Assembly (NCBI GenBank): GCA_030583805.1
Contig: CP129476.1
Coordinates: 53,453-117,452 of the forward strand
Source of the DNA: Patescibacteria group bacterium
Lineage (GTDB): Bacteria; Patescibacteriota; Patescibacteriia; SG8-24; DYFX01
Direction: 5' to 3'
Length of the DNA stretch: 64,000 nt
The notes under the pieces: model-generated
The model's input: only the letters and a program-made list of their open reading frames with translations
Databases searched by the model: none
What the model was told of the DNA's origin: nothing
Shown here: in pieces, positions 4,634 to 61,723 of the stretch
Layout of the letters: every line of letters starts with the position of its first letter
Numbering within the stretch: position 1 is the first letter of the stretch
Made by a program: the position numbers and the translations under genes

Positions 4634-4669
4634 AGGCATCCCGCCTCATGGGGATGCCTCTTTTATTTG
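4634..4669 (+). terminator. intrinsic terminator after GGDEF gene
   Basis: Hairpin AGGCATCCC / GGGATGCCT (9-bp stem) followed by CTTTTATTTG. The T-tract overlaps the folD stop. Confidence 0.6.
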
Positions 4670-12281: not shown

Positions 12282-14473
12282 AACCGCTCGACGCATTCCT
12301 CCTGAAGCTCGTCCGTTACGGCTTGTTCGCGGTGTTCGCGATCCCGTTCGTCGTCTGGTTGAGCCACCTCTATCCGTGGGTGACCGGAAAGGTCATGTGC
12401 TTCCAGATCCTGGTCGAACTGCTTTTCCCGTGTTACGTCCTGCTCGCGTTCCGCCGCAAAGAATTCCGCCCCTCGAAGTCGCCCTTCCTGTATGCCATGC
12501 TCGCGTACTTCGCCGTGGCGACGCTTTCGATGCTGTTGGGCGACAATACGCACCGGAGTTTCTGGTCCAAGCCGGACCGGCTCACGGGCCTCTTCTTCCA
12601 ATACCACCTGCTCGCCTTCTTCCTTATGGCCGGCGCCACCTGGCGCAAGGTCATGGTGCAGCCGGTGATCGCCGCCACGATTTCGGCAATCATCCTTTCT
12701 CTCCACGGCCTCCTTCAGGTGATGTTCCCTCCCGCGGGCGCGCTCGACGTGCGCGGATCCGCCACGCTCGGAAACGCCAGCTATCTCGGGCAGTACCTCG
12801 TACCGCACCTGTTCCTTGCCGGCTGGTTGGTCGCGCGCTACTGGAAAACGCCTTTGCGTTGGGCTTGGGGCGCAGCCGGCCTCGTGATCATGTTCGGCAT
12901 TTTTGCGACGAAATCCAAAGGCGCCTTGCTCGGCGTCGTGATCGGCGCGCTCGCGGCCTCCTTGATCGCCGCGGTGCGCGGAGGCAGGCGCGCGAGGATG
13001 TTCAGCTTGATCGGCCTCGGTCTCGTGGTCCTGGCGGCCGTCGCGTACCTGATCGGCAACCAGGTGCAACCGTTCAAGCGCTGGCTTTATGACGGACGCT
13101 TGTCGATCCAATACTTCCAGGAAACGAGCCATTCGCGAAAACTCCTGATCAGCAACGCTCTCAAGGGGTTCTCGCAGAAACCTTTGCTCGGCTGGGGTCC
13201 TGAGAACTTTGAAAGCGGATATTATTTCAACTACGATCCGCTCACGCTCCAGTACGGAGAATACGAAACGCGCCAGGACCGTCCTCACAACCTGGTGCTT
13301 GAGATGCTGCACAACCTTGGCGCGCTGGGATTCCTGGCCTATACCGCCGTCTTCGTTTTTGCCGTGCGCGTCGCCGTTACGCGAAAGCGGGAAGACTGGG
13401 TTCTTGGCGCCGGACTCGTCGTCGCGGCGATCGCGCAGGTCGGCACCAACCTGTTTATCTTCGAAACACCGATGTCGTATCTGGCGCTCTTCTTCATGTT
13501 CTCCCTTGTCGCTGCTGAAGCAGCTTCGCGCGAGGAGCGAGAAGAGGGGGCTGACGAGTCGAGCCAGGCCGCCGTGCCGCTCGCGCTGCTCGTCGCGCTT
13601 CTGAGTCTTTGGAGCTTGTATACCGTGTCCGCAAGCGTCCGCGCCGCCAAAATTACGTCGCAAATGATCATGGCGCTTTCGCAACCGGGACGCACGGCCG
13701 AAGAATGGTCTGGAATGCTCGAGGAGCTGCGCAAGAAAGAATCTCCCTACTACGAACGGCATATTCGCGCGGCCACGTCGCATCTCAGCCAGTCGCGCGG
13801 CGAATACCTCGAAGGGCCGTACCGTCCGATCCTGATCGATTTGGCGGAAGACGAGTACCGCCGTTTCAAGAATCGCAACGATTACGTCCAGGCGCTCGTG
13901 ATCTCTTCCGCGTACCTGAGCTTCGGACCGCGTACGCCAGAGCAGCAAGCGGCGCTCGAAGACGCTGCGGCGCGGGCGGCGGCGCGTTCGCCCAACCGGC
14001 ACGAGGTCGAGGTGATTCTGGCGCAGATCGCGTGGGAAAAAAATGAGCTCGACGTGGCCGAGACGCACATCAATCGGATTCGCGAGCTCGATCCGTCGCT
14101 TCCGCTCGGCGGCGGCTGGTGGATGCGCTGGCAGCTTGAATTCCGCGATCCGACGGCGGCTCCGAAATATCTGGCGGAGCACCCGGAGATCAAAGACAGC
14201 CAGGACGCGTGGGACCAGGTCGAATACGGCACGCTTCATATGCTGAACCAGAGGCGCTGGGCCGATCTTCTCGCGGTACAAAAAGCGTCCGCCGAAGCGA
14301 ACGTGCGAAATGTCCAATGGGATCTTGTGGGAGCGATCGGCGCCTGGGCGCTCGGCGACAAAGCCAAGAGCGACGCTTTGATCAGCGAAGCGCGCGCGCT
14401 CTATCCGGAAAAGCTCGATCTCGTCGAAGCGATCGCCGGACAGCGTGAAGTTATCGTCGCGAACGGCGGTTAA
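12263..14473 (+). CDS. O-antigen ligase/polymerase (WaaL/Wzy)-like polytopic membrane protein with C-terminal TPR-like domain
   Basis: 736 aa. About 12 TM segments. Wzy_C-type loop (RPHNLVLEMLHNLGALGF). C-terminal ~280 aa soluble helical repeats (TPR-like). Overlaps the murC stop. Confidence 0.8.
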   Translation: MQNIPMKPLDAFLLKLVRYGLFAVFAIPFVVWLSHLYPWVTGKVMCFQILVELLFPCYVLLAFRRKEFRPSKSPFLYAMLAYFAVATLSMLLGDNTHRSFWSKPDRLTGLFFQYHLLAFFLMAGATWRKVMVQPVIAATISAIILSLHGLLQVMFPPAGALDVRGSATLGNASYLGQYLVPHLFLAGWLVARYWKTPLRWAWGAAGLVIMFGIFATKSKGALLGVVIGALAASLIAAVRGGRRARMFSLIGLGLVVLAAVAYLIGNQVQPFKRWLYDGRLSIQYFQETSHSRKLLISNALKGFSQKPLLGWGPENFESGYYFNYDPLTLQYGEYETRQDRPHNLVLEMLHNLGALGFLAYTAVFVFAVRVAVTRKREDWVLGAGLVVAAIAQVGTNLFIFETPMSYLALFFMFSLVAAEAASREEREEGADESSQAAVPLALLVALLSLWSLYTVSASVRAAKITSQMIMALSQPGRTAEEWSGMLEELRKKESPYYERHIRAATSHLSQSRGEYLEGPYRPILIDLAEDEYRRFKNRNDYVQALVISSAYLSFGPRTPEQQAALEDAAARAAARSPNRHEVEVILAQIAWEKNELDVAETHINRIRELDPSLPLGGGWWMRWQLEFRDPTAAPKYLAEHPEIKDSQDAWDQVEYGTLHMLNQRRWADLLAVQKASAEANVRNVQWDLVGAIGAWALGDKAKSDALISEARALYPEKLDLVEAIAGQREVIVANGG

Positions 14474-15672: not shown

Positions 15673-17892
15673 ATGAAAGTCGTCTTCGCCACCGGCATTT
15701 TTCCTCCCGATATCGGCGGTCCCGCCACCTCGGTTTCGGCGTTGGCTGAAGCGTGGAGCGCGCGCGGGCATCGCGTTACGGTCGTGACGTATGCCGATTC
15801 CGTGGAGGACGGCGCGCGTTCCGCGTACGGGGTCGTTCGCGTTCCGCGCGCGTTGCCCGCATGGAAGCGCTACGCGGCTTTTTTTCGCGCGCTTTGGCGC
15901 GCGTCCGACGAACCCGGGCCGATCTTCGCGCAGGACGCGATCGCTTCAGGCGTGCCCGCGCTCCTGGTCGCCTGGCTCCGCCGCCGGAGGTTCATCGTCC
16001 GGATCGCGGGCGATTTCGCCTGGGAGCAAGCGCACGTGAAGTACGGGTACGGCGAATCGCTCGAAACCTTTCAAAAAGACGCACGCGTTCCGCTCGTACC
16101 GATGGTTTTGCGCGCGGTGCAGCGCTTCGTGTATCGCCGCGCTGATCTCGCGCTCGCGCCCAGCCGCTACCTGGCCGCGGTGCTCCGCGACTGGGGCGTC
16201 CCCGAACGCCGCATTCGCATGGTGTACAACGGCGTCCATCTCCCAGAGGTTGCCGGCGAGCGCGGGAAGCATCCGCGCCGCATCGTCGCGGCCGGACGTC
16301 TCGTGCCTTGGAAAAATTTCGACGTCTTGATCAAGGCGATGCCGCGCGTCGTCGAGCGCTTTCCCGATGCGGAGCTGCTGATTGCCGGCGACGGACCTGA
16401 ACTCACGCGCCTGCGCGCGCTGGCGAGCGCGCCGATGCTCGCGGAACGCGTGACGTTCGCGGGCAAAATGGAACGCGAGGCGCTTTGGAAAACCATTGCC
16501 GAGAGCGGCGTTTTTGCGCTCGTGAGTTCTTACGAAGGCTTCTCGCACCAGCTGGTCGAAGCCTCGGCGTGCGGCACGGCGATTGTCGCGAGCCGCGCCG
16601 GAGGCAACACGGAACTTATCGAGAACGGGCGAAACGGCCTGCTGGTCGAACCGGGCGATGCCGCGTCGCTGGCGCAGGCGCTGATTCGGTTTCTGGAGGA
16701 TCCGGCATTCGCGCGCGCGTGCGCTGAAGAAGCGGCAAAAGATGCGCGGACGTTTTCGATCGAGCGGCAAATTGCGGAAACGTCCGAGATCGTACTCGGC
16801 GCGCCCGGACTCCGCGTCGTTCTCGTCAGCCGCGACGGCACGGTTGCCGATGCCGCTTCGCGGACGGCCGCGCGCATGCGGTCCTACGGCGAACGCGTCG
16901 ATCATCTTCGTGTCGTGAGCCTCGCGAAACAGGACGCGGCTTCGGTCGAGCTCTCGCCGCGGGTTCATGCGGATGTCGTTGACGTTCGCGGGTATCCTTT
17001 GCCGTGGCGGCTCGTGCGGCAGGTGCGCGAGGCGATCGCGGCGGAGCAGGCGACGCTCGTGGTCGCGCAAGATCCGTTCGAAGCGGGATTGGTTGGCGCG
17101 GCTGCGGCCTCGGCCGAGCAGGTTCCGTTCGTTGTCGAAGAACACGGCGGCGTCTATCTTTCCGAACATTGGCGGCAGGAGACGCTGAAACACAAGGTGT
17201 TGTATCCGCTCGGGCTCCGCGTCCTGAAACGCGCCGCCGGTATCCGGGCGGTCAGCGTGAAAATCGAAGAAGACCTGCGTCGGCGTTTTCCGACGGCGGA
17301 GATCGTCAAGATTCCCGTCTACACGGAACCGCGCACGTGCCGTTCGAGCGCGCCGCCGCACGTGTTCGGATACGTCGGCCGCTTCGTGCCGCAAAAGAAT
17401 CTCTTCGGCATGCTTGAAGCGTTTGCCGTGGTCGCCAGAGCGCTTCCGCAAGCGAAGCTGCTGCTTGTCGGCGCCGGACCGCTTGAAAACACGCTCAAGG
17501 CGCGCGCCTTCGTTCTCGGTATTTCAGAACGCGTGGAATGGATCGCGCACACGGAAAGCGTCGACAGCGTCTATGAACGCATCGGTACGCTCGTGCTTTC
17601 TTCGTGGTACGAGGGCTGGGCGCGCGTGGTGCCGGAAGCGATGTCCTGCGGTATTCCCGTCGTCATGACGGACGTGGGCTGCGCCAACGAATTGTTGCGC
17701 AACGGCATGGAAGGGTACGTCGTTCCGATCGGGGACGATGCCGTACTGGCCAAGGCGATGATCGATATCGTGCAGTCTGGAAAGCACGGGCTTTTGGCCG
17801 CCGCGGCGAAGCGCCGCGTCGAAACGTCGCCGACGCCGCAAGAGCTCGGCGATCGGCTGGTCGATTTTTGGAAGCGCTTCGGAGCGGCCTAG
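15673..17892 (+). CDS. tandem GT4-GT4 fusion glycosyltransferase
   Basis: 739 aa from ATG 15673 (MKVVFATGIFPP). Two complete GT4 units, each with its own E-x7-E-type motif (SSYEGFSHQLVEASACGTAIV...; SSWYEGWARVVPEAMSCGIPVV...). Confidence 0.8.
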   Translation: MKVVFATGIFPPDIGGPATSVSALAEAWSARGHRVTVVTYADSVEDGARSAYGVVRVPRALPAWKRYAAFFRALWRASDEPGPIFAQDAIASGVPALLVAWLRRRRFIVRIAGDFAWEQAHVKYGYGESLETFQKDARVPLVPMVLRAVQRFVYRRADLALAPSRYLAAVLRDWGVPERRIRMVYNGVHLPEVAGERGKHPRRIVAAGRLVPWKNFDVLIKAMPRVVERFPDAELLIAGDGPELTRLRALASAPMLAERVTFAGKMEREALWKTIAESGVFALVSSYEGFSHQLVEASACGTAIVASRAGGNTELIENGRNGLLVEPGDAASLAQALIRFLEDPAFARACAEEAAKDARTFSIERQIAETSEIVLGAPGLRVVLVSRDGTVADAASRTAARMRSYGERVDHLRVVSLAKQDAASVELSPRVHADVVDVRGYPLPWRLVRQVREAIAAEQATLVVAQDPFEAGLVGAAAASAEQVPFVVEEHGGVYLSEHWRQETLKHKVLYPLGLRVLKRAAGIRAVSVKIEEDLRRRFPTAEIVKIPVYTEPRTCRSSAPPHVFGYVGRFVPQKNLFGMLEAFAVVARALPQAKLLLVGAGPLENTLKARAFVLGISERVEWIAHTESVDSVYERIGTLVLSSWYEGWARVVPEAMSCGIPVVMTDVGCANELLRNGMEGYVVPIGDDAVLAKAMIDIVQSGKHGLLAAAAKRRVETSPTPQELGDRLVDFWKRFGAA

Positions 17893-18881
17893 GCTTCGAC
17901 GTCGTAAAAACCTTTCGCGTTGCGCGGGAAAGCGCGGATCTGTTCCGGCGGGCTGACGCAAAGATCGCCCGGTTTCAACGGGAACGGGGCTTCGTGCGCG
18001 TGAACGAGCAGAATGCCTCCGCGGCAGCAGACAAGCCATTTGCCGTTCGGGAACGTTTCAAGGACGGTTCCCGGAGCGCGTCCGGACTGTCCGTAGGCGA
18101 TCGCGTCCGTTTCGAATATCGAGGCGCGATGGATCGTGATCTTCTCGCCGCGCACGTACGTGAAGGCGCCGTTGAACGGCGGCGCGACCGCTCGAATGAA
18201 CCGCTCGATGTCCTCGAGATCCGCGCGCCAATCGATCAGGCTGTCTTCAGGATTCCGTTTCGGATAGAACGTCGGCGTCTCGTCGCTTTGCGGCGCCAGG
18301 CGAAACTGGCGCTCGAGAAGCGCCGGCAAATTTTTGATGATGAGGCGTTTCATCGCCAAGGCGTTTTTAAAATGCATCGTCTCGGCCGTGTCCTCCGGAC
18401 GGATCGTGAACCTGAACGTGTCCAGAACAGCGCCGGAATCGACGCCGGGATCGTACCGAAAGAGGTTCGTATAAAACTCCGTCCGCCCTTCCAAAATCGA
18501 CCAATTCATCGGCGAGCGCCCGCGGCCCTTGGGCAGGTTTTCGGCGCTGCCGTGCATGCCGAACGCGCCGATGCGGATGAGATCAAGAACGTTTGCGGGA
18601 ATCAGCCGCTGCCAGCCGATCACGAAGGCGAGATCGAGCTGCATGGAACGGATCGCCTCGACGTCCTCCGGCTCTTTCAGGGCATAGCTTCGCGCGACGT
18701 AGCAGGGAATGCCGTGCGCTTCGGCGAACGCGCGCAAGTCTTCGTAGTCGGCGACGTCGTTTTTCGCGGCAAGTTCCGGCGAGATCGTAATGAGCTGCTG
18801 CACGCCGCGCTGCGCCAAAAGCGCCTCAAGCATGAAGCGCGTCGTTTGCTTGCAGCCGAAGATGGCGATCTTCGCGTTCAT
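17889..18881 (-). CDS. formyltransferase family protein (sugar N-formyltransferase / Fmt-like)
   Basis: Start MNAKIAIFG. Formyl_trans_N region (HGSAENLPKGRGRSPMNWSILEG) and C-terminal Fmt-like domain. Stop overlaps the next gene start. Confidence 0.8.
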   Translation of the reverse strand: MNAKIAIFGCKQTTRFMLEALLAQRGVQQLITISPELAAKNDVADYEDLRAFAEAHGIPCYVARSYALKEPEDVEAIRSMQLDLAFVIGWQRLIPANVLDLIRIGAFGMHGSAENLPKGRGRSPMNWSILEGRTEFYTNLFRYDPGVDSGAVLDTFRFTIRPEDTAETMHFKNALAMKRLIIKNLPALLERQFRLAPQSDETPTFYPKRNPEDSLIDWRADLEDIERFIRAVAPPFNGAFTYVRGEKITIHRASIFETDAIAYGQSGRAPGTVLETFPNGKWLVCCRGGILLVHAHEAPFPLKPGDLCVSPPEQIRAFPRNAKGFYDVEA

Positions 18882-19585
18882 GAAGGGATACGCGTTCGGT
18901 AGGGAATGCAATTCTCCGCGACGTGCGCCTGAAAGCGATTGGCGCGCTCCGTTACGAAGCGGTCAAGAAGATCCACGTTATCCTTCGTGTTCGGATACAT
19001 CCACCAGAGCGGATGGATGAGGAGGTGCATCGCTTTGGTCTGCTTCCATTCCTCCGTTTCGAACGGGTGTCCGAAACGGAACAGGCCTTGGGAATCGGAA
19101 ACGTACTTGATGTCCTTGAAGTACTTGTTCTGGTAGGTGTGTTCGACGCCACAGAGCGGAGCGTCGCAGTTCTTGAGAAAATCGTTGGGGCGGTGCACGC
19201 TCATGACCGTGACCGGCACGCCGAAATACGATTCAAAAAGCGCTTTTTCCTCGAGAAAGCCTTGTTCGACGTTTTCATAATGCGTCGGATCGAAATGGAT
19301 GCTGACGCGGTGCCCGCGCGCATGGATCGAATGGATATATTCGGCGTTCGCGCGCGAAAAGGGGTTGTAGGAATCCGAACGCATCAGGAAAAAGTAGGTC
19401 GCTTTCACCCCGAGCGCGTCTTCCGCCAGCGACATGTCGTGCGCCAGCTTCACGTCAAAGTCGACGTCGTGGCGCACGATGAGTTCTCCCGTCGCGCCCG
19501 TCGCCTGATCAAAAAAAATCGGACGATAGCCGTTGAAGGCAAAGCCTTGAAGCAATGCGGCGTATTTTCCGAGATAGCTTTCCAT
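18878..19585 (-). CDS. hypothetical protein, possible polysaccharide deacetylase-like (NodB-fold) enzyme
   Basis: 235 aa. VRHDVDFD...GVKATYF resembles CE4 deacetylase motifs. Assignment is weak. Confidence 0.45.
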   Translation of the reverse strand: MESYLGKYAALLQGFAFNGYRPIFFDQATGATGELIVRHDVDFDVKLAHDMSLAEDALGVKATYFFLMRSDSYNPFSRANAEYIHSIHARGHRVSIHFDPTHYENVEQGFLEEKALFESYFGVPVTVMSVHRPNDFLKNCDAPLCGVEHTYQNKYFKDIKYVSDSQGLFRFGHPFETEEWKQTKAMHLLIHPLWWMYPNTKDNVDLLDRFVTERANRFQAHVAENCIPYRTRIPS

Positions 19586-19590
19586 GGGGT

Positions 19591-20616
19591 TCAGTGGATC
19601 GGCAGGCTGATGACGTGCTTGGCGGCGAATTCCGAATGGGGGAGGGGCGCGTGCTTGCCGAACAGGCCGACGTAGGCCGGCTGCTTGTAGACCGGAACGT
19701 CGTAATAGATTGCGGACGGAATGCCTTCGCGTTCAAGTTCTTTCACGAACGCCTTGCGGTCGTGTACGAGCAGCGTGAAGACGTTGTAGGTATGCCCCTC
19801 CTGTTCGGGCAGCGCCATGACGTTCGGGTGGTTCCGGTATTTTTTGAACCAGGATTGCGCTCGCGCGCGTCGCACGGCCAGATCTTCCTCCAGCCATGCT
19901 ATTTTTTCAAGCAGGACGGCGGCTTGGATCGTGTCGAGACGGCTGTTGCCGCCGATGATCTGGTGGACGTACTTTCTGGGTTGTCCGTGGTTTTTGAGCA
20001 GCTTGAAGCGCGCCAGGACGGCTTTCGAGCGGATCGTGACCGCGCCGCCGTCGCCGAAGGCGCCAAGATTCTTCGTCGGGAAGAAACTGAAGCAGCCGAC
20101 ATCACCGAACGTGCCGGTGAGCTTGCCGCCGCTTTTCGCGCCGTAGGACTGGGCGCAATCCTCGACGAGTTTCAGGTGATGCTTTTTGCAGATACGCGCG
20201 ACCTCCGCCACGTCGCAGGCAAGGCCGTAGAGATGTACGACGAGGACGGCGCGCGTTTTTTTCGTGATCTTTTTCTCGATCTGCGAAGCGTCGATGTTGA
20301 AGGTCTGCGGATCGATGTCGACCAGGACCGGTTTTGCGCCGACGGCCGCGATCGCTTCAATGGTCGCGAAATAGGTGAACGCCGTCGTGATGACTTCGTC
20401 GCCCGGACCGATACCGAGCGCTTTCAGGCCGATCATCAGAGCGTCCGTGCCCGAATTGCAGGTGACGGCTTCCACGCCGAAAAAGTCCGACAGCTTACGC
20501 TCGAGATCTCCGACTTCCGGACCGTTGATGAACTGTTCGGCGGCGACAACACGACCGATCCGCTTCAAGAGCAGGTCGGTTTTTTTCTTTGAGAGCTGTT
20601 GCGAAAAGAAGTTCAT
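19591..20616 (-). CDS. DegT/DnrJ/EryC1/StrS family PLP-dependent sugar aminotransferase
   Basis: 341 aa. TCNSGTDAL, HLYG, and an FFPTKNLGAFGDGGAV lysine region. Confidence 0.9.
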   Translation of the reverse strand: MNFFSQQLSKKKTDLLLKRIGRVVAAEQFINGPEVGDLERKLSDFFGVEAVTCNSGTDALMIGLKALGIGPGDEVITTAFTYFATIEAIAAVGAKPVLVDIDPQTFNIDASQIEKKITKKTRAVLVVHLYGLACDVAEVARICKKHHLKLVEDCAQSYGAKSGGKLTGTFGDVGCFSFFPTKNLGAFGDGGAVTIRSKAVLARFKLLKNHGQPRKYVHQIIGGNSRLDTIQAAVLLEKIAWLEEDLAVRRARAQSWFKKYRNHPNVMALPEQEGHTYNVFTLLVHDRKAFVKELEREGIPSAIYYDVPVYKQPAYVGLFGKHAPLPHSEFAAKHVISLPIH

Positions 20617-21344
20617 GCGGAAGCGGGTCCTTCGTAGGTGATCTCGTCGTCAGACAGGCGGCGCGGGCCGCGTACGGTTTCGCGTTCTTCGATGATCTGT
20701 GCGAGCAGTCCCGGCAAGCGAGCGAGCGCAAAGATGCCGCGCATCGGTTCAGGTCCGAAACCCATGTCGAGCAAGACGGCTGCCATCGCCCCGTCGACGT
20801 TAAGCGGCAGCGGTTTTTTCGCGTCGGTATTCAGCGCCGCTTCGACGCGTTCGGCGAACGCGGCATAGGCGCCGTAGACGCCGAGCGCTTTGGCGCGCGC
20901 GCATAAGGCTTCGCTGCGGCGGTCCTTGGCCAGAAGCTTGTGCCCGTATCCCGGCAAGCGGCGGTGTTCGGCGTGTGCGCGCGAGACGACGACTGCGGGG
21001 TCTTCCTGCGCCTGCGCGAGAAAGAATCTGGCCGCGTTCTCGATCGCGCCGCCGTGCAGCGTACCTTGGGCTAGGATGCCGGCGGCCAAAGCGACGTGCG
21101 GATCGTTTCCGGAAGAGGCGACGGCGCGCGCCGTGATCGACGAAACGGGCGCCGCGCCGTGATCGATGGCGGCGACCAGCACGGATTCCAGCATGGCGGC
21201 CTGTTCTTTCGTCGGCCAGCTCTCGCGCAGCAAAAGCCACGTCACTTCCGTAAACGACCGCGTACCGATCAAGGAGATCAGGTCGTGGCCGCGAAGAAGT
21301 TCGTGTTCCTTCGTGACATGGGAGATGCGCGTTTTGATGTTCAT
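20613..21344 (-). CDS. citrate synthase-like catalytic domain protein (citryl-CoA lyase / ATP-citrate lyase C-terminal-like)
   Basis: 243 aa. GYGHKLLAKDRRSE resembles the citrate-synthase HxxY...D-R catalytic loop. Size matches CCL / ACL C-terminal domain. Start overlaps the upstream gene stop by 4 bp. Confidence 0.6.
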   Translation of the reverse strand: MNIKTRISHVTKEHELLRGHDLISLIGTRSFTEVTWLLLRESWPTKEQAAMLESVLVAAIDHGAAPVSSITARAVASSGNDPHVALAAGILAQGTLHGGAIENAARFFLAQAQEDPAVVVSRAHAEHRRLPGYGHKLLAKDRRSEALCARAKALGVYGAYAAFAERVEAALNTDAKKPLPLNVDGAMAAVLLDMGFGPEPMRGIFALARLPGLLAQIIEERETVRGPRRLSDDEITYEGPASA

Positions 21345-22237
21345 GCGTGGGTCGTCGAATGGATCAATTCTACGAGGTTTTCGAAGCGTTCGGCAACCAA
21401 GGCGCCGGCGTCTTGGAGCGCCGCCATTTTTTCCCGGGCCGACCGGCCCTTGCCGACGATCGCGCCGGCGTGTCCCACAACAGTACCCGACGGCAGCGTT
21501 TCGGCGAAGGCGCCGCCGATATGCACCGCGAGCGGCTTCGTAAAGCCGCCGTCATGCAGCAAAGAAACGATTTCCGTTTCGTAGTTCACGCCCTGTTCGG
21601 CGTAGAGCACGACGGCTTTCGTGGCCGGGTCGTTTTCCATTTCCTTCAGGACGTCGGCGTACGTCGTGCCGATCAAGAGTTCGCCGCCGACGTGGACGGC
21701 GGCGCTCTGTCCGAGGCCGGCCTGGCGCACGAGCCAGGAGAGCTCGTTGGTCATGCCGCCGGAGCGCGAGATGACGCCGATCGGTCCTGGCGCGTAGATG
21801 TCGTCGACCAAAGGGCCGCCGACGACGCCGAGGCGTCCGATGCCGGGAACGATGCAGCCGAGCGAGCCAGGGCCGATGATCCGTGCGCCGCGTTCGCGCG
21901 CCGCCGCGAGGCAGTAGGCCGCGTCCTTGAGCGGCATCTTTTCCGTCATGACGTTCACGAGCGGTACGCCCGCCTCAAGCGCTTCGAGCACGGCGGATTT
22001 TGCGGCGGACGGAGGCACATAGACCGCCGAGACGTTGATTTCCGGGAAGGACGACAGGGCGTCTCGCACGGTCCCGAAGACCGGCGCGCCGTCGGCGACG
22101 TGCCCGCCTTTGCCCGGCGTGACGCCGCACGGCACGCGCGTGCGGTACGCCCGCATGGCCGTGAGCGCGCGCAATCCCTCCTTGCCGGTGATGCCCTGGA
22201 TCAAGACCGATGTTTTTTCCGTCAGCAGGATACTCAT
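21341..22237 (-). CDS. succinyl-CoA synthetase alpha-subunit (SucD)-like CoA-binding protein
   Basis: 298 aa. MSILLTEKTSVLIQGITGKEG, GVTPGKGG, phosphohistidine loop GHAGAIV. Colinear with SucD/CcsB. Confidence 0.85.
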   Translation of the reverse strand: MSILLTEKTSVLIQGITGKEGLRALTAMRAYRTRVPCGVTPGKGGHVADGAPVFGTVRDALSSFPEINVSAVYVPPSAAKSAVLEALEAGVPLVNVMTEKMPLKDAAYCLAAARERGARIIGPGSLGCIVPGIGRLGVVGGPLVDDIYAPGPIGVISRSGGMTNELSWLVRQAGLGQSAAVHVGGELLIGTTYADVLKEMENDPATKAVVLYAEQGVNYETEIVSLLHDGGFTKPLAVHIGGAFAETLPSGTVVGHAGAIVGKGRSAREKMAALQDAGALVAERFENLVELIHSTTHA

Positions 22238-23304
22238 AGCGCCAGCGTTTTCATGCGTGTCACGGCATCATCCATCGACGTTTCCTTGCCGAAAAGTTCG
22301 ATGCGCAGGCCGTTCCGTTCCGCGCAGGCGCGCAAGAGCGCGAGGCCTTCGCGTTCGCGCGGGCCGGCACGGCGGACGACGATCGGGTAGGAAGGCTTGA
22401 GCGCGTCGAGCGCCTCGGCAATGCCTTCGAACGTTTCTTTGACGTCGGTAAAATTGGCGATGCCGCCGACGATCAGCGCGCCGCGGAGGCCCGGCTTCGA
22501 CAAGACGAGCGTCGCGAGCTCGCGGACTTTTTCTTTCGGCGGGTTTCCGGAGTACTCGGCGTAATTGGCAGCGCGGAGTCCGGCGCGTTGCATGGCGTCC
22601 ATGTTCACGAGACTCGCGCCGCCGCCCGAAAAAAGCGTGGCGATGTCGCCGGAGAGCGCGCGATACGACGCGCCGAAGGCCGAACGGTCATGCACTGCGT
22701 CGTCGAGCGCGACCTTTGCGTCGAGCGCCACGAGTGATCCGTCTGCGCGCTCGGCGACGGGATTGATTTCGATTTGCCGCGCGTCTTCTTCAAAAAATGC
22801 TTTGACAAGCTTTTCGCAAAGCTCCGGCAACGCTTTGGCGATCAGGCCCAGCTCGCCGAAAATTCCTTCGAGCGAGCGCGCCGGATCGCGCGAATCGATC
22901 GGAAAGGATCGGATATCCTCGCGCGTCTCGACGCCGGAGCCTCCGTGTCGGCCGACGAGCAGGAGCGGTCCGCGAGAAGCGGCGTCGTAGAGGCAGGAAA
23001 CGTACAGTTCGCGCGCCGCAACGATGTGCTCTTCGAGCAGCATGCGCTCTACGGGCTGGCCGTTCACGCCGCGCGCCAGCCATGCGGACACAGTCTTCTC
23101 GACGTCGGACACGGATTCGCAAAAAACCACGCCGCCGTGCGCGGCGCGGTTTCCCTCAAGGATTTGCGCTTTGACCACCCAGCAGCCGCCCAGACTCTTC
23201 GTGGCCGCTTCGATCTCCTCGATGCCTGAAATAAGGATTCCGGCAGGAATCGCGATGCCGTGTTTTGCGAGGAGCGTCTTACCTTCGTGCTCGCAGACGT
23301 TCAT
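22234..23304 (-). CDS. succinyl-CoA synthetase beta-subunit (SucC)-like ATP-grasp protein
   Basis: 356 aa. MNVCEHEGKTLLAKHGIAIP resembles the SucC N-terminus. ATP-grasp plus CoA-ligase domains. Start overlaps the SucD-like stop (4 bp). Confidence 0.85.
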   Translation of the reverse strand: MNVCEHEGKTLLAKHGIAIPAGILISGIEEIEAATKSLGGCWVVKAQILEGNRAAHGGVVFCESVSDVEKTVSAWLARGVNGQPVERMLLEEHIVAARELYVSCLYDAASRGPLLLVGRHGGSGVETREDIRSFPIDSRDPARSLEGIFGELGLIAKALPELCEKLVKAFFEEDARQIEINPVAERADGSLVALDAKVALDDAVHDRSAFGASYRALSGDIATLFSGGGASLVNMDAMQRAGLRAANYAEYSGNPPKEKVRELATLVLSKPGLRGALIVGGIANFTDVKETFEGIAEALDALKPSYPIVVRRAGPREREGLALLRACAERNGLRIELFGKETSMDDAVTRMKTLAL

Positions 23305-24352
23305 ATTCTTCCTTCACGCGCCGTACGAGCTTTTTGAGATTGTGGTGCTCGACGACGATCGAGCGGAGCGTTTCGCCCATGCGGGCGCGTTCGTCGGGCG
23401 CGAGCGACAGGCACTTGTCGAGCTTGGCGGCAAAATCCTCAGCACCCCATTCGTAAAAGAGGTAGGGCAGCCACTCGCCGAAGTATTGGTTGAAGACCGG
23501 TGTGCAGACGAGCGTCGGAACGCCGCAGGACATCGACTCGAGAAAATTCTTTCCGGCGCCGCCGCCGCGCTGCATGGCGATGGAGACCGACGCGCCGCAC
23601 AAGTAGGGGAGAATGTCCTTGTTCGGCACCGGCCCCACGAAGTCGAAAGCGTCCTCCAGGCCGGCCGCCTTGATGCGTTCCTTGATGCCGGCGACGTAGG
23701 CTACGTCGGACGCGGTCAGCGGTCCGCCGATGATGCGTGCCACGAAATCGCGGCGACCGTACTTGTCGCGGAGAAGCTTGCAAGCATCGATCAGCAAATC
23801 ATACTCCTTAATAGGAGAAAGGCGTCCGACGCTTAAAATCACCTTGCGTTCCGAGGTGCGTTGCGGCACGGGGCAGCTGAAGAGATCCGGGTCGACGCCG
23901 TGGCCGACCGCCATGAATTTCGGCGAATCGCTGCCGCGGAAGCTTTCCTTCGAAACCGAAACGACGCCGTCGCCGAGCCAAAGCGCCATGAGCCGCAGCC
24001 AGCTGCCGCCCTTATGCGCGAACCAAAGCAGCGTCGTCTTGCCCATGAGCCTCCAGAACGGGCCGCCGAGCGTGACGTACTCGGAGTTCATGTGCACGAA
24101 GACGCAGTCGTAGTCGTTGCGCAGGCCGAAAATGTATTTGTAGAAACGCCAAAGGTACTGCAGCCGCGAGCGCTTTTCCTCTTTGCCGAGCGAGTGCACG
24201 CGCACGTTGGACGGGAGATCGTACGCGCCTTTTTTCAAACAGATCACTTCGACGGACGCGAAGACTTCAGCGAACCTCTTGATCCACTGGTGAAACGCGC
24301 CGAGCACGTCGTCGTTCTTATCGACGATTTGCGTGATGATCAGGAGTTTCAT
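23279..24352 (-). CDS. glycosyltransferase family 4
   Basis: Start MKLLIITQ (ATGA overlap with the upstream stop). GT4-like C-terminal domain (VGRLSPIKEYDLLIDA...GGGAGKNFLESMSCGVPTLV). Confidence 0.75.
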   Translation of the reverse strand: MKLLIITQIVDKNDDVLGAFHQWIKRFAEVFASVEVICLKKGAYDLPSNVRVHSLGKEEKRSRLQYLWRFYKYIFGLRNDYDCVFVHMNSEYVTLGGPFWRLMGKTTLLWFAHKGGSWLRLMALWLGDGVVSVSKESFRGSDSPKFMAVGHGVDPDLFSCPVPQRTSERKVILSVGRLSPIKEYDLLIDACKLLRDKYGRRDFVARIIGGPLTASDVAYVAGIKERIKAAGLEDAFDFVGPVPNKDILPYLCGASVSIAMQRGGGAGKNFLESMSCGVPTLVCTPVFNQYFGEWLPYLFYEWGAEDFAAKLDKCLSLAPDERARMGETLRSIVVEHHNLKKLVRRVKEEYERLRARR

Positions 24353-24927
24353 GCGGGGCGCACAAGCCCGTCCTCCAGACGGTAGGTTTTTCCGCACGGC
24401 GCGCAGACGGCGCGTTCGTTTTCAAAAGACAGTCGCGCATCGCAGGCGCAAACCCAACCGATGGGCTTGGCCGGAACGCCGACGACGAGCGCGTAGTCCG
24501 GCACGTTCTTGGTGACGACGGCGCCCGCACCGACCATCGCCCAAGCGCCGATCGTCACGCCGCAGACGATGGTCGCATTCGCGCCGATTGCTGCGCCGGT
24601 TTTGACGAGCGTCGGCTGCCAAGCTTCGCGTTTGGAGGTCTCGCGCGAGCGCGGCATCGGGTCGTTCGTAAAAACGACCGACGGGCCGACGAACACGCGG
24701 TCTTCCAGCGTCACGAGATCCCAGACGTCGATATTCGCCTCGAGTTTCACGCGGTCGCCCAAAACGGCTTTTCCGAAAACGGTGCAGTTGTGGCCGATGA
24801 CGCAGGTTTCGCCGACCTTCGCGCCGCTCACGATCTGGCTGTGGCGCCAGATTTTCGTGCCTGAACCGATGGTCGCGTCGTCGGCGACTTCGGCGGTCGG
24901 ATGGATCGTGACGCCCTCATGCGCCAT
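24349..24927 (-). CDS. hexapeptide-repeat (LbH) sugar N-acetyltransferase, WbpD/PglD/QdtC-like, with C-terminal Cys4 ribbon
   Basis: 192 aa of left-handed beta-helix repeats. C-terminus CACDARLSFENERAVCAPCG (CxC...CxxC). Confidence 0.85.
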   Translation of the reverse strand: MAHEGVTIHPTAEVADDATIGSGTKIWRHSQIVSGAKVGETCVIGHNCTVFGKAVLGDRVKLEANIDVWDLVTLEDRVFVGPSVVFTNDPMPRSRETSKREAWQPTLVKTGAAIGANATIVCGVTIGAWAMVGAGAVVTKNVPDYALVVGVPAKPIGWVCACDARLSFENERAVCAPCGKTYRLEDGLVRPA

Positions 24928-25714
24928 ACGCGGCGTAGAGCGAATCGACGAGTTCGACGGACGGCAGCGTCTCGGCCGGGCGCACGCCCTTGCCCTCGAG
25001 CAGGTCGAGGTAGACGAGGCGGTGCAGATTCTCGTATGACAAGTTATCCTTCGACGAGAAGTTGTAATCCTTGCCGTTCACGACGAAGCGGCGTTGCTGA
25101 CCCGCGCGGTCGCGGTAGATGCCGACCGTCCAGGTGCAGCGATAACGGTCGCCTTCGATGACGCCTTTGCCGACGAGATCGTTCAATTCCGTCGTCGTGA
25201 CCTTCGTCGGCGCTCCGAAGATGTGCTGGAGCAGGTCGAAATAGTGGATGCCGATGTTGTAGAGCGGGCCGCCGGAGCGCTTGTTGTCGCCCTTCCACGT
25301 TTTGAAATACTTCTCGTCGCGGTAGACGGAAATATTCATGTCGATCTCGAACGTGCCGCCGGCGGCGACCTGCGCGCGCAAATCGTGCACCATCGGATGA
25401 TGGCGCAGCTGCATCACGGTGAAGATCTTGTCGAATCCGGCCAGCGATTTGACCGACTCCGCGGAGATGCCGAGCGGCTTTTCGCAAAGCACGAGCTTGC
25501 CGGCTTCGGCGGCCGCGCGTGCCATCGGGACGTGCAGGTCGTTCGGGCCGAGGATCACGATACAATCGGTTTTCGGGTTGTCCATCACTCCGGTTTTCCA
25601 GCGGTCTTCGCCGTACGCGGTATTCACCGCGTCGATCAATTTTCCGCCCAAAGCCTCGATGGCTTCGGCGTGCCGCGGCATGATGAATCCGGTTCCAATC
25701 AGGCTGAAGTTCAT
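24917..25714 (-). CDS. Gfo/Idh/MocA family sugar oxidoreductase (WbpB-like), short form
   Basis: 265 aa. N-terminal Rossmann MNFSLIGTGFIMPRHAEA, then EKP and a GGPLYNIGIHYFDLL C-terminal domain. Confidence 0.8.
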   Translation of the reverse strand: MNFSLIGTGFIMPRHAEAIEALGGKLIDAVNTAYGEDRWKTGVMDNPKTDCIVILGPNDLHVPMARAAAEAGKLVLCEKPLGISAESVKSLAGFDKIFTVMQLRHHPMVHDLRAQVAAGGTFEIDMNISVYRDEKYFKTWKGDNKRSGGPLYNIGIHYFDLLQHIFGAPTKVTTTELNDLVGKGVIEGDRYRCTWTVGIYRDRAGQQRRFVVNGKDYNFSSKDNLSYENLHRLVYLDLLEGKGVRPAETLPSVELVDSLYAAYGA

Positions 25715-25758
25715 ACTTCGGCATTATCGGCTTGAGAGGGCGATTCGTCAATGAACGC

Positions 25759-25787
25759 TTGACGTTTTGGTATTTTTGGGGAATACT
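25759..25787 (+). promoter_or_regulatory. sigma70-like promoter candidate (TTGACG-17-AATACT) with ~150-nt leader before 25936
   Basis: TTGACG 25759-25764, 17-nt spacer, AATACT 25782-25787. It lies in the 220-bp intergenic region that must also hold the leftward promoter of the 9-gene operon. Confidence 0.4.
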
Positions 25788-25935
25788 AGGTCGTTGCCTG
25801 GAAGTATCCTGTTTGAACTCAGCGTTTTGAGGCTGCATCTCGGCTCCAAACCGCCGCGTTCAAAAGGGAAGTTCCCGAGGCGAACGTTTCGTCTCAGAAC
25901 GTACCGACGGCATTCAAGAAAGGCAGGGTAGCCAT

Positions 25936-26745
25936 ATGGCCAACCTGTTCACTGTTCCCGCTGGAAAGCTCAATACGTTCACTGGCAAGCTGTCGCAAGA
26001 GGGCCTAACGGCCGAAATCGTCTTGGCGACTGACAAATATCCGGAGATCGTCCGGGTAATGGTCGAGGCGGGGCGCAAGGCGTTCGAAGCTCGTGATCAG
26101 AACCCCTTCGTCATGACGCTTGAGGAGCAGCTCGAGGCACTGCGTCTCGCCAACATGGAGGAGGGGTGGGGTATCGCTGACGAGATCATCGATCAGCTCG
26201 CCGCGACCGCACCCGCTTGGCCCAAGGGCCGTGACTCCTACCGTTCGTTTCGTATTCGCTTCGGTGAAGGTGGTGATGGTGTGGCACAGACCTTCGAGGC
26301 GCACATGACCCGCATTGAGCGCCTGTACGGAAAAGAGAAGTTTCAGCGACACACGTACTTGCGCTCGGGAAAAGAGTACTTGCGCCGACACGCACCGGAT
26401 CGTCCCCATACGCCCGTTGTCGAGTGGTGCATCACAAGTCTCGATGCCAACGAGAAAATGAAGAGCGTCAAAGCTCGTCGCGGTCCGAAGTCGCTCGCCG
26501 ACGAAGGTTTGGTTCTCGCCTGGCTCTTTCCCAAACGAGTTGAAGCGATCGACCGCAGCATGTGGCCGGCATGGTTCTGTGCAGGGTACGAGATCTGTGT
26601 TCCAGAGTTTTGCCCTCAAGGTTTCGTCCCTACTTGGAACAACCTGATCTGCGTCACCCGCATCCAGAATGGCGAGATACTTCTGAAAATCGACCAACAG
26701 GACTGCGCCTTAAAGGGCTATTCGGTGCCGGCTGTTGAGGGGTGA
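25936..26745 (+). CDS. hypothetical protein with Cys-rich C-terminus
   Basis: 269 aa, no recognisable domain. C-terminal cysteines (WFCAGYEICVPEFCPQGF...NLICV...QDCALKGY). Confidence 0.5.
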   Translation: MANLFTVPAGKLNTFTGKLSQEGLTAEIVLATDKYPEIVRVMVEAGRKAFEARDQNPFVMTLEEQLEALRLANMEEGWGIADEIIDQLAATAPAWPKGRDSYRSFRIRFGEGGDGVAQTFEAHMTRIERLYGKEKFQRHTYLRSGKEYLRRHAPDRPHTPVVEWCITSLDANEKMKSVKARRGPKSLADEGLVLAWLFPKRVEAIDRSMWPAWFCAGYEICVPEFCPQGFVPTWNNLICVTRIQNGEILLKIDQQDCALKGYSVPAVEG

Positions 26746-26870
26746 TCGTGTTAAGACGCTTGCACATTCCCTGACCAGCTCGAAACAAATTCTTCGCGCG
26801 ACAAACCGCATTTGGAAAACGCCCTCTCAGGGCGCGCTCCATGTGCGGTATTTTCTTTTGCGCAAACTGG

Positions 26871-37275: not shown

Positions 37276-37276
37276 T

Positions 37277-61689: not shown

Positions 61690-61707
61690 CCGGTCGGCCT
61701 TTTATTG
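61679..61707 (+). terminator. intrinsic terminator candidate after AstE/AspA-like gene
   Basis: Hairpin GCCGACC-CTGACC-GGTCGGC followed by CTTTTATT. The stop codon lies in the loop. Confidence 0.5.
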
Positions 61708-61723
61708 CCAATTTTTTCCTCAT

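Follow-up and report, generated by a model that had tools for sequence, protein, structure and literature searches.

Three consecutive genes in a glycan operon of a Patescibacteria (CPR) bacterium with a tiny genome appear, on balance, to specify an ATP-citrate lyase split into two enzymes, as in Hydrogenobacter, that would provide acetyl-CoA for the N-acetylation of envelope sugars. The enzymes are ordinary members of their families, and the novelty lies in their deployment in a glycan operon. No paper describing a citrate-cleavage trio deployed in a glycan operon was found in the literature, in line with the first-pass annotation, which knew of no such module in an O-antigen- or capsule-type locus.

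The DNA analyzed was a 64-kb stretch (the window) of a Patescibacteria MAG. The trio was found on the minus strand at exactly the coordinates first assigned to it, 22234-23304, 21341-22237, and 20613-21344. The operon consists of nine genes, from the GFO oxidoreductase to the formyltransferase, with the following features:

25723..25751, minus strand: candidate operon promoter, sigma-70-like (TTGACG, 17-nt spacer, GATAAT; 10/12 positions)
24917..25714, minus strand: GFO/IDH/MocA oxidoreductase, WbpB-like sugar 3-dehydrogenase (GFO_IDH_MocA N- and C-terminal domains)
24349..24927, minus strand: hexapeptide-repeat (LbH) sugar N-acyltransferase, WbpD/NeuD-like (Pfam Hexapep)
23279..24352, minus strand: GT4 glycosyltransferase (Pfam Glycos_transf_1)
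22234..23304, minus strand: citryl-CoA synthetase large subunit-like protein, 356 aa, WKZ29180.1 (ATP-grasp_2 and Citrate_bind)
22546-22557, minus strand: putative citrate-contact motif EYSG, large-subunit residues 250-253
22447-22461, minus strand: putative citrate-contact motif IANFT, residues 282-286
22360-22377, minus strand: putative citrate-contact motif VRRAGP, residues 310-315
21341..22237, minus strand: citryl-CoA synthetase small subunit-like protein, 298 aa, WKZ29179.1 (CoA-binding and phosphohistidine domains)
20613..21344, minus strand: citryl-CoA lyase, 243 aa, WKZ29178.1, stand-alone citrate-synthase-homology module (NF004869)
21159-21161, 20940-20942, and 20793-20795, minus strand: lyase catalytic motif residues His62, His135, and Asp184
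19591..20616, minus strand: DegT/WbpE-like PLP sugar aminotransferase (DegT_DnrJ_EryC1, 2.3e-101; ATGA overlap with the lyase)
18878..19585, minus strand: 235-aa protein with a CE4/NodB-type deacetylase fold (AF2 model and Foldseek)
17889..18881, minus strand: ArnA/Fmt-like sugar N-formyltransferase (Formyl_trans_N and Formyl_trans_C)

The GC1/GC2/GC3 pattern of the three trio ORFs was of the coding type, and an independent gene call on another assembly of this locus gave identical genes and Pfam families. The SucC/SucD, SucD/CCL, and CCL/DegT junctions were each a 4-bp ATGA start/stop overlap; ATGA overlaps were also present at the Hexapep/GT4 and CE4/FMT junctions. The overlaps and the coupling to DegT were as first described, and the trio is translationally coupled to the flanking sugar genes. 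The likely GT4 start, the ATG at 24352, gives 357 aa, the length also obtained in the independent gene call, and makes the gene overlap the Hexapep stop codon by ATGA. The longest ORF extends up to 24397. The formyltransferase likely starts at the ATG at 18881 (330 aa). The candidate promoter closely precedes the GFO start codon and is a consensus match only, promoter rules for CPR not being established.

The operon sits within a ~30-kb glycan cluster (~7.6 to 37 kb of the window). The cluster contains six GT4 genes, an epimerase, Wzy_C, Bac_transf, a flippase, and a methyltransferase, as well as the formyltransferase, DegT, hexapeptide transferase, and GFO oxidoreductase. No TCA or rTCA gene was found in the 64-kb window, and the placement of the block in a glycan rather than a TCA context was thus upheld. 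The window encodes no citrate transporter, no oxaloacetate-consuming enzyme, and no oxaloacetate source. Against the orthologs in a related locus (L001), dN/dS of the trio was 0.06-0.13 (large subunit, 0.125; small subunit, 0.076; lyase, 0.064), which indicates functional genes under purifying selection.

The lyase matched only the C-terminal part of Pfam Citrate_synt (profile positions 162-350 of 357, 9.2e-39). It passed the NCBIfam cut-off for citryl-CoA lyase (NF004869; 217.4 bits, cut-off 212). Its best solved-structure match was the CCL of H. thermophilus (6hxp_A, 8e-47), and it aligned to residues 12-244 of that 268-residue chain, as a full-length CCL. The catalytic His and Asp residues, on which the earlier proposal depended, are present; H62, H135, D184, and R209 were invariant in 16 homologs. 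In the family tree, the H. thermophilus CCL nested inside, among CPR CCLs, and this characterized enzyme was 50-55% identical to many of them.

The large subunit consists of an ATP-grasp domain (residues 3-184; ATP-grasp_2, 3.8e-29) and a citrate-binding domain (residues 218-349; Citrate_bind PF16114, 8.6e-31). Its best PDB match was the H. thermophilus CCS large subunit (6hxq_B, 9e-42). The C-terminal domain alone scored 85 bits against CCS, 65-77 against ACL/ACLY, and at most 42 against SCS beta. In the alignment with human ACLY (3mwd_A), residues G309, N346, F347, T348, and R379 were identical, and in family alignments the equivalent residues were invariant among CPR homologs. G309, N346, T348, and R379 of ACLY are reportedly citrate ligands, in work by Sun et al. 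from 2010. CPR members kept EYSG, IANFT, and VRR invariantly, whereas an Anaerolineae subfamily was without these motifs. In the window's clade, the ATP-grasp phosphate loop was divergent (GNRAAH vs GKRGK). The AF2 model had a pLDDT of 87.6; in the fold search, CCS and SCS beta were not separable, SCS chains being marginally first.

The small subunit matched Pfam CoA_binding, Succ_CoA_lig, and Ligase_CoA. The GHAGAI phosphohistidine loop is intact, as first noted, at residues 255-260 (21458-21475), with His256 at 21470-21472. Its PDB matches were the SCS alpha chain 2yv2_A (1e-62) and, second by a small margin, the CCS small subunit 6hxq_A (4e-61). Both GenBank and JGI label it 'succinate--CoA ligase subunit alpha'. 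The pair shares with SucCD the fold of both subunits and the phosphohistidine motif GHAGA. Unlike SucCD, both subunits fell below the curated NCBIfam cut-offs (SucC, 178 vs 370 bits; SucD, 238 vs 336 bits), the large-subunit C-terminal domain is of the citrate-binding type, with Arg (VRR) where E. coli SCS has Leu (VRL), and the pair comes with a lyase. The Pfam families named for profile searching by the first-pass annotation (ATP-grasp_2, CoA_binding, Ligase_CoA, and Citrate_synt, the last in its C-terminal part) were all matched. The pair is not housekeeping SucCD.

In the proposed mechanism, CCS, with its ATP-grasp/citrate-binding large subunit and CoA-binding small subunit carrying the phosphohistidine His256, would convert citrate, ATP, and CoA to citryl-CoA, ADP, and Pi. 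The 243-aa lyase would split citryl-CoA into acetyl-CoA and oxaloacetate. The module would be expressed together with a WbpB/WbpD/WbpE-like pathway (3-dehydrogenase, N-acetyltransferase, and aminotransferase), through a shared transcript and coupled translation. Its job would be anabolic, the supply of acetyl-CoA for N-acetylating envelope sugars, in parallel to eukaryotic ACLY in cytosolic acetylation. We infer that the substrate is citrate, that the reaction runs in the cleavage direction, and that sugar N-acetylation is the sink; the citrate may come from the host or the environment. The Hexapep acyltransferase is presumed to be the local acetyl-CoA consumer.

H. thermophilus CcsA/CcsB and Ccl (6hxq and 6hxp) have the same three-protein architecture with a separate ~250-aa lyase, and gave the best solved-structure sequence matches for the large subunit and lyase. 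The structure matches, the CCL cut-off, and the intact motifs favor the split ATP-citrate lyase first proposed. Unlike the Hydrogenobacter system, the module belongs to a Patescibacteria host and is built into an amino-sugar/glycan operon, with translational coupling to its genes rather than to carbon-fixation genes or, within 64 kb, to TCA/rTCA genes. The large subunit is also shorter (356 vs 429 aa), lacks a ~30-aa inter-domain segment, has GNRAAH in place of GKRGK, and has the ACL-like citrate loop IANFT instead of the TANNT of CcsA. ACL (AclAB; ACLY) has the same citrate-binding domain, and the trio would perform the chemistry of ACL; the motifs EYSG, IANFT(D)VK.TF, and VRR.GP were identical or nearly identical to those of Chlorobium AclB and human ACLY. 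ACL/ACLY, however, have the citrate-synthase-homology module as a fusion with the alpha subunit, whereas it is a separate gene in the window, and the lyase was much closer to stand-alone CCL (163 bits) than to the ACL modules (at most 67 bits).

Of 80 related loci, most of them CPR, at least 67 had the trio with its gene order unchanged. In most CPR loci, GlmS, in some cases a HAD gene, YvcK, and GNAT preceded the trio. Within five genes of the trio in 60 CPR loci, YvcK was found 36 times and GlmS and GNAT 30 times each; the YvcK neighbor passed the cut-off for UDP-GlcNAc-binding protein. An amino-sugar or glycan gene was present at this distance in 47 of the 60 loci. Split GlmU halves, the acetyl-CoA-forming Kbl, and a 2-oxoacid:ferredoxin oxidoreductase subunit (POR gamma) were further neighbors. 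In an Uhrbacteria locus (L010), the trio lay directly upstream of bona fide PseB and PseC, and in the window's clade it split the WbpB/WbpD/WbpE-like set, the order GFO>Hexapep>GT4>trio>DegT being kept down to 59% CCL identity. The common theme of these three arrangements is acetyl-CoA-consuming amino-sugar synthesis, so the trio most likely would make acetyl-CoA for N-acetylation. The idea that such a module supplies acyl-CoA within a glycan operon gained support from this recurrence across CPR.

The same CCS and CCL could instead be a general source of acetyl-CoA and oxaloacetate, the position beside glycan or GlmS genes being inherited or incidental, which is a lesser but real possibility. 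No amino-sugar gene lay within five genes in the remaining 13 of 60 CPR loci. A PHP-like protein, a methyltransferase, and RluA, unrelated housekeeping genes, were nearly as conserved beside the trio as GlmS, so inheritance of gene order could account for much of the link to GlmS. In the relative L084 (CCL 66% identical), the trio persists within the same glycan cluster although GFO, Hexapep, GT4, and DegT are missing; the trio can thus be kept independently of a local acetyltransferase, and a strictly dedicated coupling between the two is unproven. The earlier suggestion of a direct feed to the adjacent N-acetyltransferase is weakened by this relative. Kbl or POR gamma beside some CPR trios implies that the trio is not those cells' sole acyl-CoA source. 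On the other side, N-acetyl-amino-sugar genes adjoin the trio in each of the three distinct arrangements, and in the window it interrupts a set of pathway partners and shows ATGA coupling. To our knowledge, CPR are without fatty-acid synthesis; sugar and peptidoglycan acetylation is therefore probably the main acetyl-CoA sink, which makes a general source and a supply for sugar N-acetylation less distinct.

Operation in reverse, from acetyl-CoA and oxaloacetate via citryl-CoA to citrate and ATP, as an ATP-conserving citrate synthase in fermentative CPR or as a source of citrate for another purpose, is unlikely. An ADP-forming ACS or Pta-Ack, common in CPR, would be a simpler ATP-yielding route from acetyl-CoA. 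Hexosamine genes and acetyl-CoA consumers (GNAT, GlmU-type, and hexapeptide acetyltransferases) are what recurs beside the trio. Among the annotated neighbors of the trio loci, no enzyme that forms oxaloacetate was found, nor was an oxaloacetate source found in the window. CCS/ACL reactions are, however, reversible in principle, and the Kbl or POR adjoining some trios could feed such a route. A human ACLY mutant formed citryl-CoA from acetyl-CoA, oxaloacetate, and ATP (PMC10115795).

It is about as unlikely that the ligase activates another di- or tricarboxylate (succinate, malate, methylcitrate, etc.) and that Hexapep transfers an unusual acyl group to the 3-amino sugar. Bacterial amino sugars can bear N-acyl groups other than acetyl, the Hexapep gene was below every NCBIfam equivalog cut-off, and the ATP-grasp loop is divergent. 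However, a lyase would destroy the acyl-CoA, and it is kept with the ligase in at least 67 of 80 loci; the contact motifs are those of ACLY/ACL, not SCS, and the C-terminal domain scored about twice as high against CCS/ACL as against SCS. The succinyl-CoA and dicarboxylic acyl-CoA options raised by the first-pass annotation are unsupported. A housekeeping succinyl-CoA synthetase with a truncated, decaying citrate synthase, as TCA remnants, would fit the database name and top PDB match of the small subunit and the fold-search order of the large one, but is effectively refuted by the SucC/SucD cut-offs, Citrate_bind in place of the SCS beta C-terminal Ligase_CoA domain, the full-length CCL, and the dN/dS values.

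For the flanking sugar genes, the nearest known pathway is WbpB/WbpE/WbpD of Pseudomonas/Bordetella O-antigen (UDP-2,3-diacetamido-2,3-dideoxy sugars), where a GFO 3-dehydrogenase, DegT, and an LbH N-acetyltransferase likewise occur in one operon. We know of no described Wbp-type locus that carries a citrate-cleavage module. Unlike that pathway, the flanking sugar genes were under equivalog cut-offs (Hexapep vs NeuD/PglB/VioB, 89 bits, cut-off 160), and the operon adds a CE4-like deacetylase and a formyltransferase (158 bits against NCBIfam PRK06988). The GFO N-terminus carries IGTGFI. JGI names members of the GFO cluster 'UDP-N-acetyl-2-amino-2-deoxyglucuronate dehydrogenase', and GenBank names the Hexapep gene 'DapH/DapD/GlmU-related protein'. 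The 235-aa CE4-like protein is part of the operon, not of the citrate module. Pfam and NCBIfam profile searches gave zero matches for it. Its AF2 model had a pLDDT of 95, and the 25 best Foldseek PDB matches were all CE4 deacetylases/esterases, with 2vyo at the top (E 2e-5). Its invariant residues were R38, H39, D40, D42, H92, H97, D99, H131, and H191.

ORF calling returned three minus-strand genes exactly where the first-pass annotation had placed them:

22234-23304, minus strand, large-subunit ORF, 356 aa
21341-22237, minus strand, small-subunit ORF, 298 aa
20613-21344, minus strand, lyase ORF, 243 aa

All three ORFs were high in GC1, low in GC2 and high in GC3, as real genes are in this 61% GC sequence. 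By the same codon-position pattern, antisense ORFs over the trio (e.g., 21347-22390, plus strand) were rejected as GC-rich artefacts. The overlapping start and stop codons proposed earlier, including the coupling to DegT, were confirmed: the SucC/SucD, SucD/CCL and CCL/DegT junctions all read ATGA. Given internal ATG starts, ATGA also joins Hexapep to GT4 and the last two genes to each other; the independent gene call of a second assembly of the same locus chose identical internal starts. The gene order is GFO oxidoreductase, hexapeptide transferase, GT4, large subunit, small subunit, lyase, DegT, a 235-aa protein and formyltransferase, with a sigma-70-like consensus match immediately 5' of GFO, the first gene. 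The ATGA junctions and this match therefore make the nine genes one minus-strand operon spanning 25714 to 17889.

The 243-aa lyase matched only positions 162-350 of the 357 in the Citrate_synt profile (Pfam), the C-terminal two thirds. It passed the citryl-CoA lyase model NF004869 with 217.4 bits (cut-off 212), and its best PDB match was the citryl-CoA lyase (CCL) of Hydrogenobacter thermophilus (6hxp_A, 8e-47). The citrate synthase models of NCBIfam gave at most 84 bits against cut-offs above 330. A full-length citrate synthase (about 360-430 aa) was rejected because of the short length, the partial profile coverage and these scores. The citrate-synthase likeness claimed by the first-pass annotation held at the catalytic His/Asp residues: H62, H135 and D184 are present and invariant. 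The motifs IDHG (His), GYGH (His) and NVDG (Asp), together with Arg209, are invariant among homologs, and the two His, the Asp and Arg209 correspond to H900, the His preceding R976, D1026 and R1065 of ATP-citrate lyase (ACLY; H900, R976, D1026 and R1065 are named in PMC10115795).

The small subunit carries the CoA_binding, Succ_CoA_lig and Ligase_CoA domains (Pfam), and its phosphohistidine loop is intact, as first read (GHAGAI, residues 255-260). Its PDB matches to citryl-CoA synthetase (CCS; 6hxq_A, 4e-61) and to the alpha chain of succinyl-CoA synthetase (SCS; 1e-62) were about equal. It scored 237.8 bits with the SucD model NF004230, below the cut-off of 336. In ATP-citrate lyase (ACL/ACLY) the citrate-synthase-homology module is fused to the C-terminus of the alpha subunit, whereas here the small subunit stops at 298 aa. 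Unlike in AclAB/ACLY, a separate ORF encodes the lyase, and its start ATG lies within the ATGA overlap.

The large subunit combines ATP-grasp_2 (3.8e-29) with Citrate_bind (PF16114, 8.6e-31); no Pfam match to Ligase_CoA was found in it, Citrate_bind standing there instead. Its best PDB match was the CCS large subunit (6hxq_B, 9e-42), and it reached 178.3 bits with the SucC model NF001913 (cut-off 370). The C-terminal domain alone gave 85 bits to CCS, 65-77 to ACL/ACLY and at most 42 to SCS beta. In the alignment to human ACLY (3mwd_A), G253, N284, T286 and R312 equal G309, N346, T348 and R379, which Sun et al. 2010 reportedly described as citrate ligands. F285 aligns with ACLY F347, and the five aligned positions, lying in the motifs EYSG, IANFT and VRR.GP, are invariant in 30 homologs. 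F347 is also discussed in PMC10115795. The AF2 model of the large subunit was well folded (pLDDT 87.6), with low confidence only at the IAN citrate loop and in the linker between the domains. A fold search of this model against the PDB matched SCS beta, CCS and ACLY (E 1e-20 to 1e-32), SCS being marginally top. The predicted structure confirms the SCS/CCS/ACL fold, and the three are separated only by sequence motifs and profile cut-offs. The large subunit of the window's clade differs in its ATP-grasp loop (GNRAAH vs GKRGK) and lacks an inter-domain segment of about 30 aa.

Among the other identities considered, housekeeping SucCD beside a decayed citrate synthase was rejected: in the profile searches proposed at first pass both subunits fell far below the SucC and SucD cut-offs, and the lyase passed that for citryl-CoA lyase. 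An ADP-forming acetyl-CoA synthetase-type enzyme gave weak NCBIfam matches and was rejected. Malate thiokinase was dismissed at 120 bits against a cut-off of 604 (NF010647). The profile cut-offs, the CCS/CCL matches and the citrate motifs supported the main proposal of the first-pass annotation, a split citrate-cleavage system serving as acyl-CoA supply, and the trio is likely to be a citrate-cleaving CCS/CCL. The annotation's further suggestion of an unusual acyl-CoA donor was considered and rejected, the evidence giving it no support. Against the closest relative, dN/dS of the trio genes was 0.06-0.13, which shows purifying selection. The three enzymes are unexceptional representatives of the CCS/CCL family, their parts already named by automatic annotation. 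The GenBank entries WKZ29178 (lyase), WKZ29179 (small subunit) and WKZ29180 (large subunit) read "citryl-CoA lyase", "succinate--CoA ligase subunit alpha" and "ATP citrate lyase citrate-binding domain-containing protein", respectively.

The operon sits in a glycan cluster of about 30 kb with GT4 genes, an epimerase, Wzy_C, Bac_transf, a flippase and a methyltransferase, interspersed with a MurC-like gene and MurB. A GFO-type dehydrogenase, a DegT aminotransferase and an LbH transferase family occur together in the one operon (Pfam), and JGI gives members of the GFO cluster the name WbpB. The GFO, DegT and Hexapep proteins each scored below every NCBIfam equivalog cut-off, so their likeness to WbpB, WbpE and WbpD is at family level. 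No TCA or reductive TCA (rTCA) genes, citrate transport genes or oxaloacetate-using enzymes were found among the annotated genes of the 64-kb window. Neither Rfam nor tRNA scans gave a match in the window.

Relatives were collected by scanning one genome per GTDB species, which gave at least 143 lyase relatives; 80 loci were kept. The order large subunit, small subunit, lyase on a single strand was found in 67-73 of the 80. Most loci belong to Patescibacteria (CPR): Uhrbacteria, Magasanikbacteria, Paceibacter, Kerfeldbacteria, Colwellbacteria, Andersenbacteria, Yanofskybacteria and Saccharibacteria-labelled MAGs. The others come from Anaerolineae, Acidobacteriota, Zixibacteria and Planctomycetota. 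CCS/CCL genes occur in more than 60 CPR species-level genomes. In the lyase tree, where the entries of loci L004 and L076 are wrong-strand ORFs to be disregarded, H. thermophilus CCL nests among lyases to many of which it is 50-55% identical. It is 39% identical to the window's lyase, whose clade lies on a longer branch.

The order GFO, Hexapep, GT4, trio, DegT was restricted to the window's clade (the closest relative L001, L002-L005, L037, L082 and L083), with CCL identity from 91% to 59%. Most other CPR loci had the order GlmS, (HAD), YvcK, GNAT, trio, PHP-like protein. The GlmS label was confirmed by its GATase and two SIS domains, YvcK passed the "UDP-GlcNAc-binding protein YvcK" cut-off, and the GNAT neighbour is a 111-aa acetyltransferase. 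A TrmB sugar regulator and a semiSWEET transporter occur in the same neighbourhood. A 250-aa uridylyltransferase-only protein equal to the N-half of GlmU lies near GlmS and the trio in five loci (L013, L014, L043, L045 and L049), and an archaeal-type LbH acetyltransferase of about 230 aa equal to the C-half does so in three (L007, L059 and L067); GlmU appears to be split in these CPR genomes. In an Uhrbacteria locus (L010), the trio has two UDP-sugar dehydrogenases and an epimerase on one flank, and the opposite flank holds bona fide PseB and PseC. In L064 the trio is flanked by an epimerase with a PMT_2 glycosyltransferase and by a Wzy-like protein. Overall, in 47 of 60 CPR-type loci one or more genes for hexosamine, amino-sugar or glycan functions lay no further than five genes from the trio; in 7 of the remaining 13 the contig held at most three called genes upstream, leaving the upstream context largely unseen.

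Other acyl-CoA-forming genes stand beside the trio in some loci. Kbl (glycine C-acetyltransferase, acetyl-CoA-forming; 583 bits, cut-off 460), often in two copies, and the gamma subunit of a 2-oxoacid:ferredoxin oxidoreductase were found in the GlmS-type neighbourhood (one or the other in L007, L018, L021, L029, L032, L050 and L061; L015, L024, L026 and L027). Their clustering with the trio and GlmS suggests an "acetyl-CoA neighbourhood". The housekeeping genes for PHP-like protein, methyltransferase and RluA keep their place beside the trio about as well as GlmS does; inherited gene order therefore accounts for part of the signal. GlmS, YvcK, GNAT, PHP-like protein, RluA and related genes were absent from the window by tblastn; the lack of GlmS, YvcK and GNAT there indicates that in the window's clade the trio relocated between amino-sugar contexts. 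A search for a citrate transporter or an oxaloacetate sink among the genes between trio members (about 25 loci) gave nothing recurrent or informative. By eye from the sequences, those genes were variable, mostly singleton hypothetical or membrane proteins, with a HAD and an AAA ATPase.

In the proposed mechanism, citrate, ATP and CoA would form citryl-CoA via phospho-His256, and the lyase would split citryl-CoA into acetyl-CoA and oxaloacetate. The acetyl-CoA could then be used by the operon's hexapeptide N-acetyltransferase, whose acceptor would be a 3-amino sugar, the product of the GFO dehydrogenase and the DegT aminotransferase. More broadly, it could serve the GlmU-type and GNAT enzymes that make UDP-GlcNAc and derivatives. 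The analysis demonstrates family identity, the motifs, the coupling, purifying selection and the recurrent association; we infer the substrate, the direction, the sink and the origin of the citrate. With the recurrent association with amino-sugar genes, acetyl-CoA supply for amino-sugar N-acetylation is, by a small margin over even, the probable role of the trio. The view that the supply is "dedicated" held in part: the ATGA coupling to sugar genes agrees with it, but L084 (CCL 66% identical), where the trio is kept in the same glycan cluster, lacks GFO, Hexapep, GT4 and DegT. The trio is therefore not strictly tied to the local acetyltransferase.

To our knowledge, CPR generally lack the TCA cycle, and all characterised CCS/CCL members belong to the reductive TCA cycle of autotrophs. 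A tentative wider proposal, which we rate somewhat below even, is that Patescibacteria without a TCA cycle and fatty-acid synthesis keep an ACLY-like module as an accessory for N-acetyl amino sugars (UDP-GlcNAc, pseudaminic-acid-type and diacetamido sugars). The module might be a portable acetyl-donor unit moving between amino-sugar loci, and the envelope might depend on citrate scavenged from host or environment. If so, it would give a testable answer to how some TCA-less CPR obtain acetyl-CoA for peptidoglycan and surface glycans, make citrate a candidate host-derived nutrient for CPR, and provide a prokaryotic counterpart to what ACLY does anabolically in eukaryotes. We know of no other cofactor- or donor-supply module for acetyl-CoA travelling with glycan genes, and this would be the first case. 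Literature searches on citryl-CoA lyase/synthetase and citrate lyase found nothing on these genes in CPR or glycan loci, and no description of the conserved position beside hexosamine genes or of a citrate-cleavage module in an O-antigen/capsule-type operon. The enzymes are known; their deployment in CPR, beside hexosamine genes and in a glycan operon, is new. Metagenome surveys use CCS/CCL as marker genes of the reductive TCA cycle (e.g., PMC11075769). Given the number of CPR species-level genomes with these genes, such calls can be false positives, and under the proposed role ccsA/ccsB/ccl matches in metagenomes would be unreliable markers of rTCA carbon fixation. The trio proteins are small and soluble with known accessions, so the hypothesis is directly open to expression and assay.

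The family also showed other forms. The large-subunit homologs of Anaerolineae/Chloroflexota loci (L070-L079) have 515-568 aa and carry an additional C-terminal stretch that is Cys-rich and ferredoxin-like. The citrate motifs are missing (no IANFT; VRLGGN vs VRRAGP), yet these proteins adjoin a CCL homolog. They probably form a subfamily of their own, with a different substrate or a redox link. In Planctomycetota/Brocadiia (L065, L068 and L076) the CCL homolog is 33-39% identical and precedes genes for an HD-domain-like protein, the large and small subunits of an aconitase/IPM-isomerase-like enzyme and an isocitrate/isopropylmalate-dehydrogenase-like protein, as judged by reading the sequences. 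This context is of citrate/TCA type, unlike that in CPR, and fits citrate chemistry for the wider family. Many loci, among them L002, L003, L005, L006 and L008, come from TPA MAG records titled "uncultured Gammaproteobacteria bacterium" and are plainly of Patescibacteria type: their synteny is the same, and their proteins are 74-84% identical to those of the window. The "Candidatus Udaeobacter" locus L013 has the canonical CPR arrangement. These titles look like placeholder or mis-binned taxonomy.

The last two genes of the operon are as follows:

18878-19585, minus strand, 235-aa protein between DegT and formyltransferase, CE4/NodB-type deacetylase fold (pLDDT 95)
17889-18881, minus strand, ArnA/Fmt-like formyltransferase, paired with the 235-aa CE4-like protein

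The 235-aa protein matched no Pfam or NCBIfam family. Its best 25 PDB fold matches were all CE4, and RHDxD and the His residues are invariant. Bacteroidota (Saprospiraceae, Pedobacter) also have members of its family, in every case annotated "hypothetical". The window, L001, L002 and L082 carry the pair; L003-L005 and L083 lack it. By analogy, the pair recalls the logic of ArnA/ArnD, or a possible swap of N-acetyl for N-formyl on a sugar. Two one-carbon genes lie within about 1 kb of the first gene of the glycan cluster:

4663-5469 and 5457-6725, minus strand, FolD and serine hydroxymethyltransferase (SHMT)

FolD and SHMT make the one-carbon/formyl-THF donor, and a sugar formyltransferase gene is part of the cluster. 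With the citrate module included, the region would thus provide for the supply of formyl as well as acetyl donors. In L062 and L067, SHMT and FolD likewise lie within about 5 kb of the trio.

Further features of the window were recorded:

10887-12281, plus strand, MurC-like Mur ligase, 19-bp overlap with the Wzy_C gene
12263-14473, plus strand, 736-aa Wzy_C/O-antigen-ligase-like membrane protein
25936-26745, plus strand, 269-aa ATG ORF in extra DNA between divergent operons
37250-38251, plus strand, MurB
61580-62620, plus strand, UDP-glucose/GDP-mannose dehydrogenase-family ORF, about 110-bp overlap with the preceding ORF (60733-61689, plus strand)

The pairing of Mur ligase and Wzy_C is kept in L001, L003, L004, L037, L083 and L084. 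The GFO operon and the divergent GT4-PMT_2 gene are about 1.1 kb apart in the window (25715-26840) and about 50 bp apart in L001. The extra DNA has a lower GC of 0.50-0.57 and may be a recent insertion. The dehydrogenase-family ORF matched the NAD-binding profile only from position 69, and may contain a frameshift or have a mis-called start.
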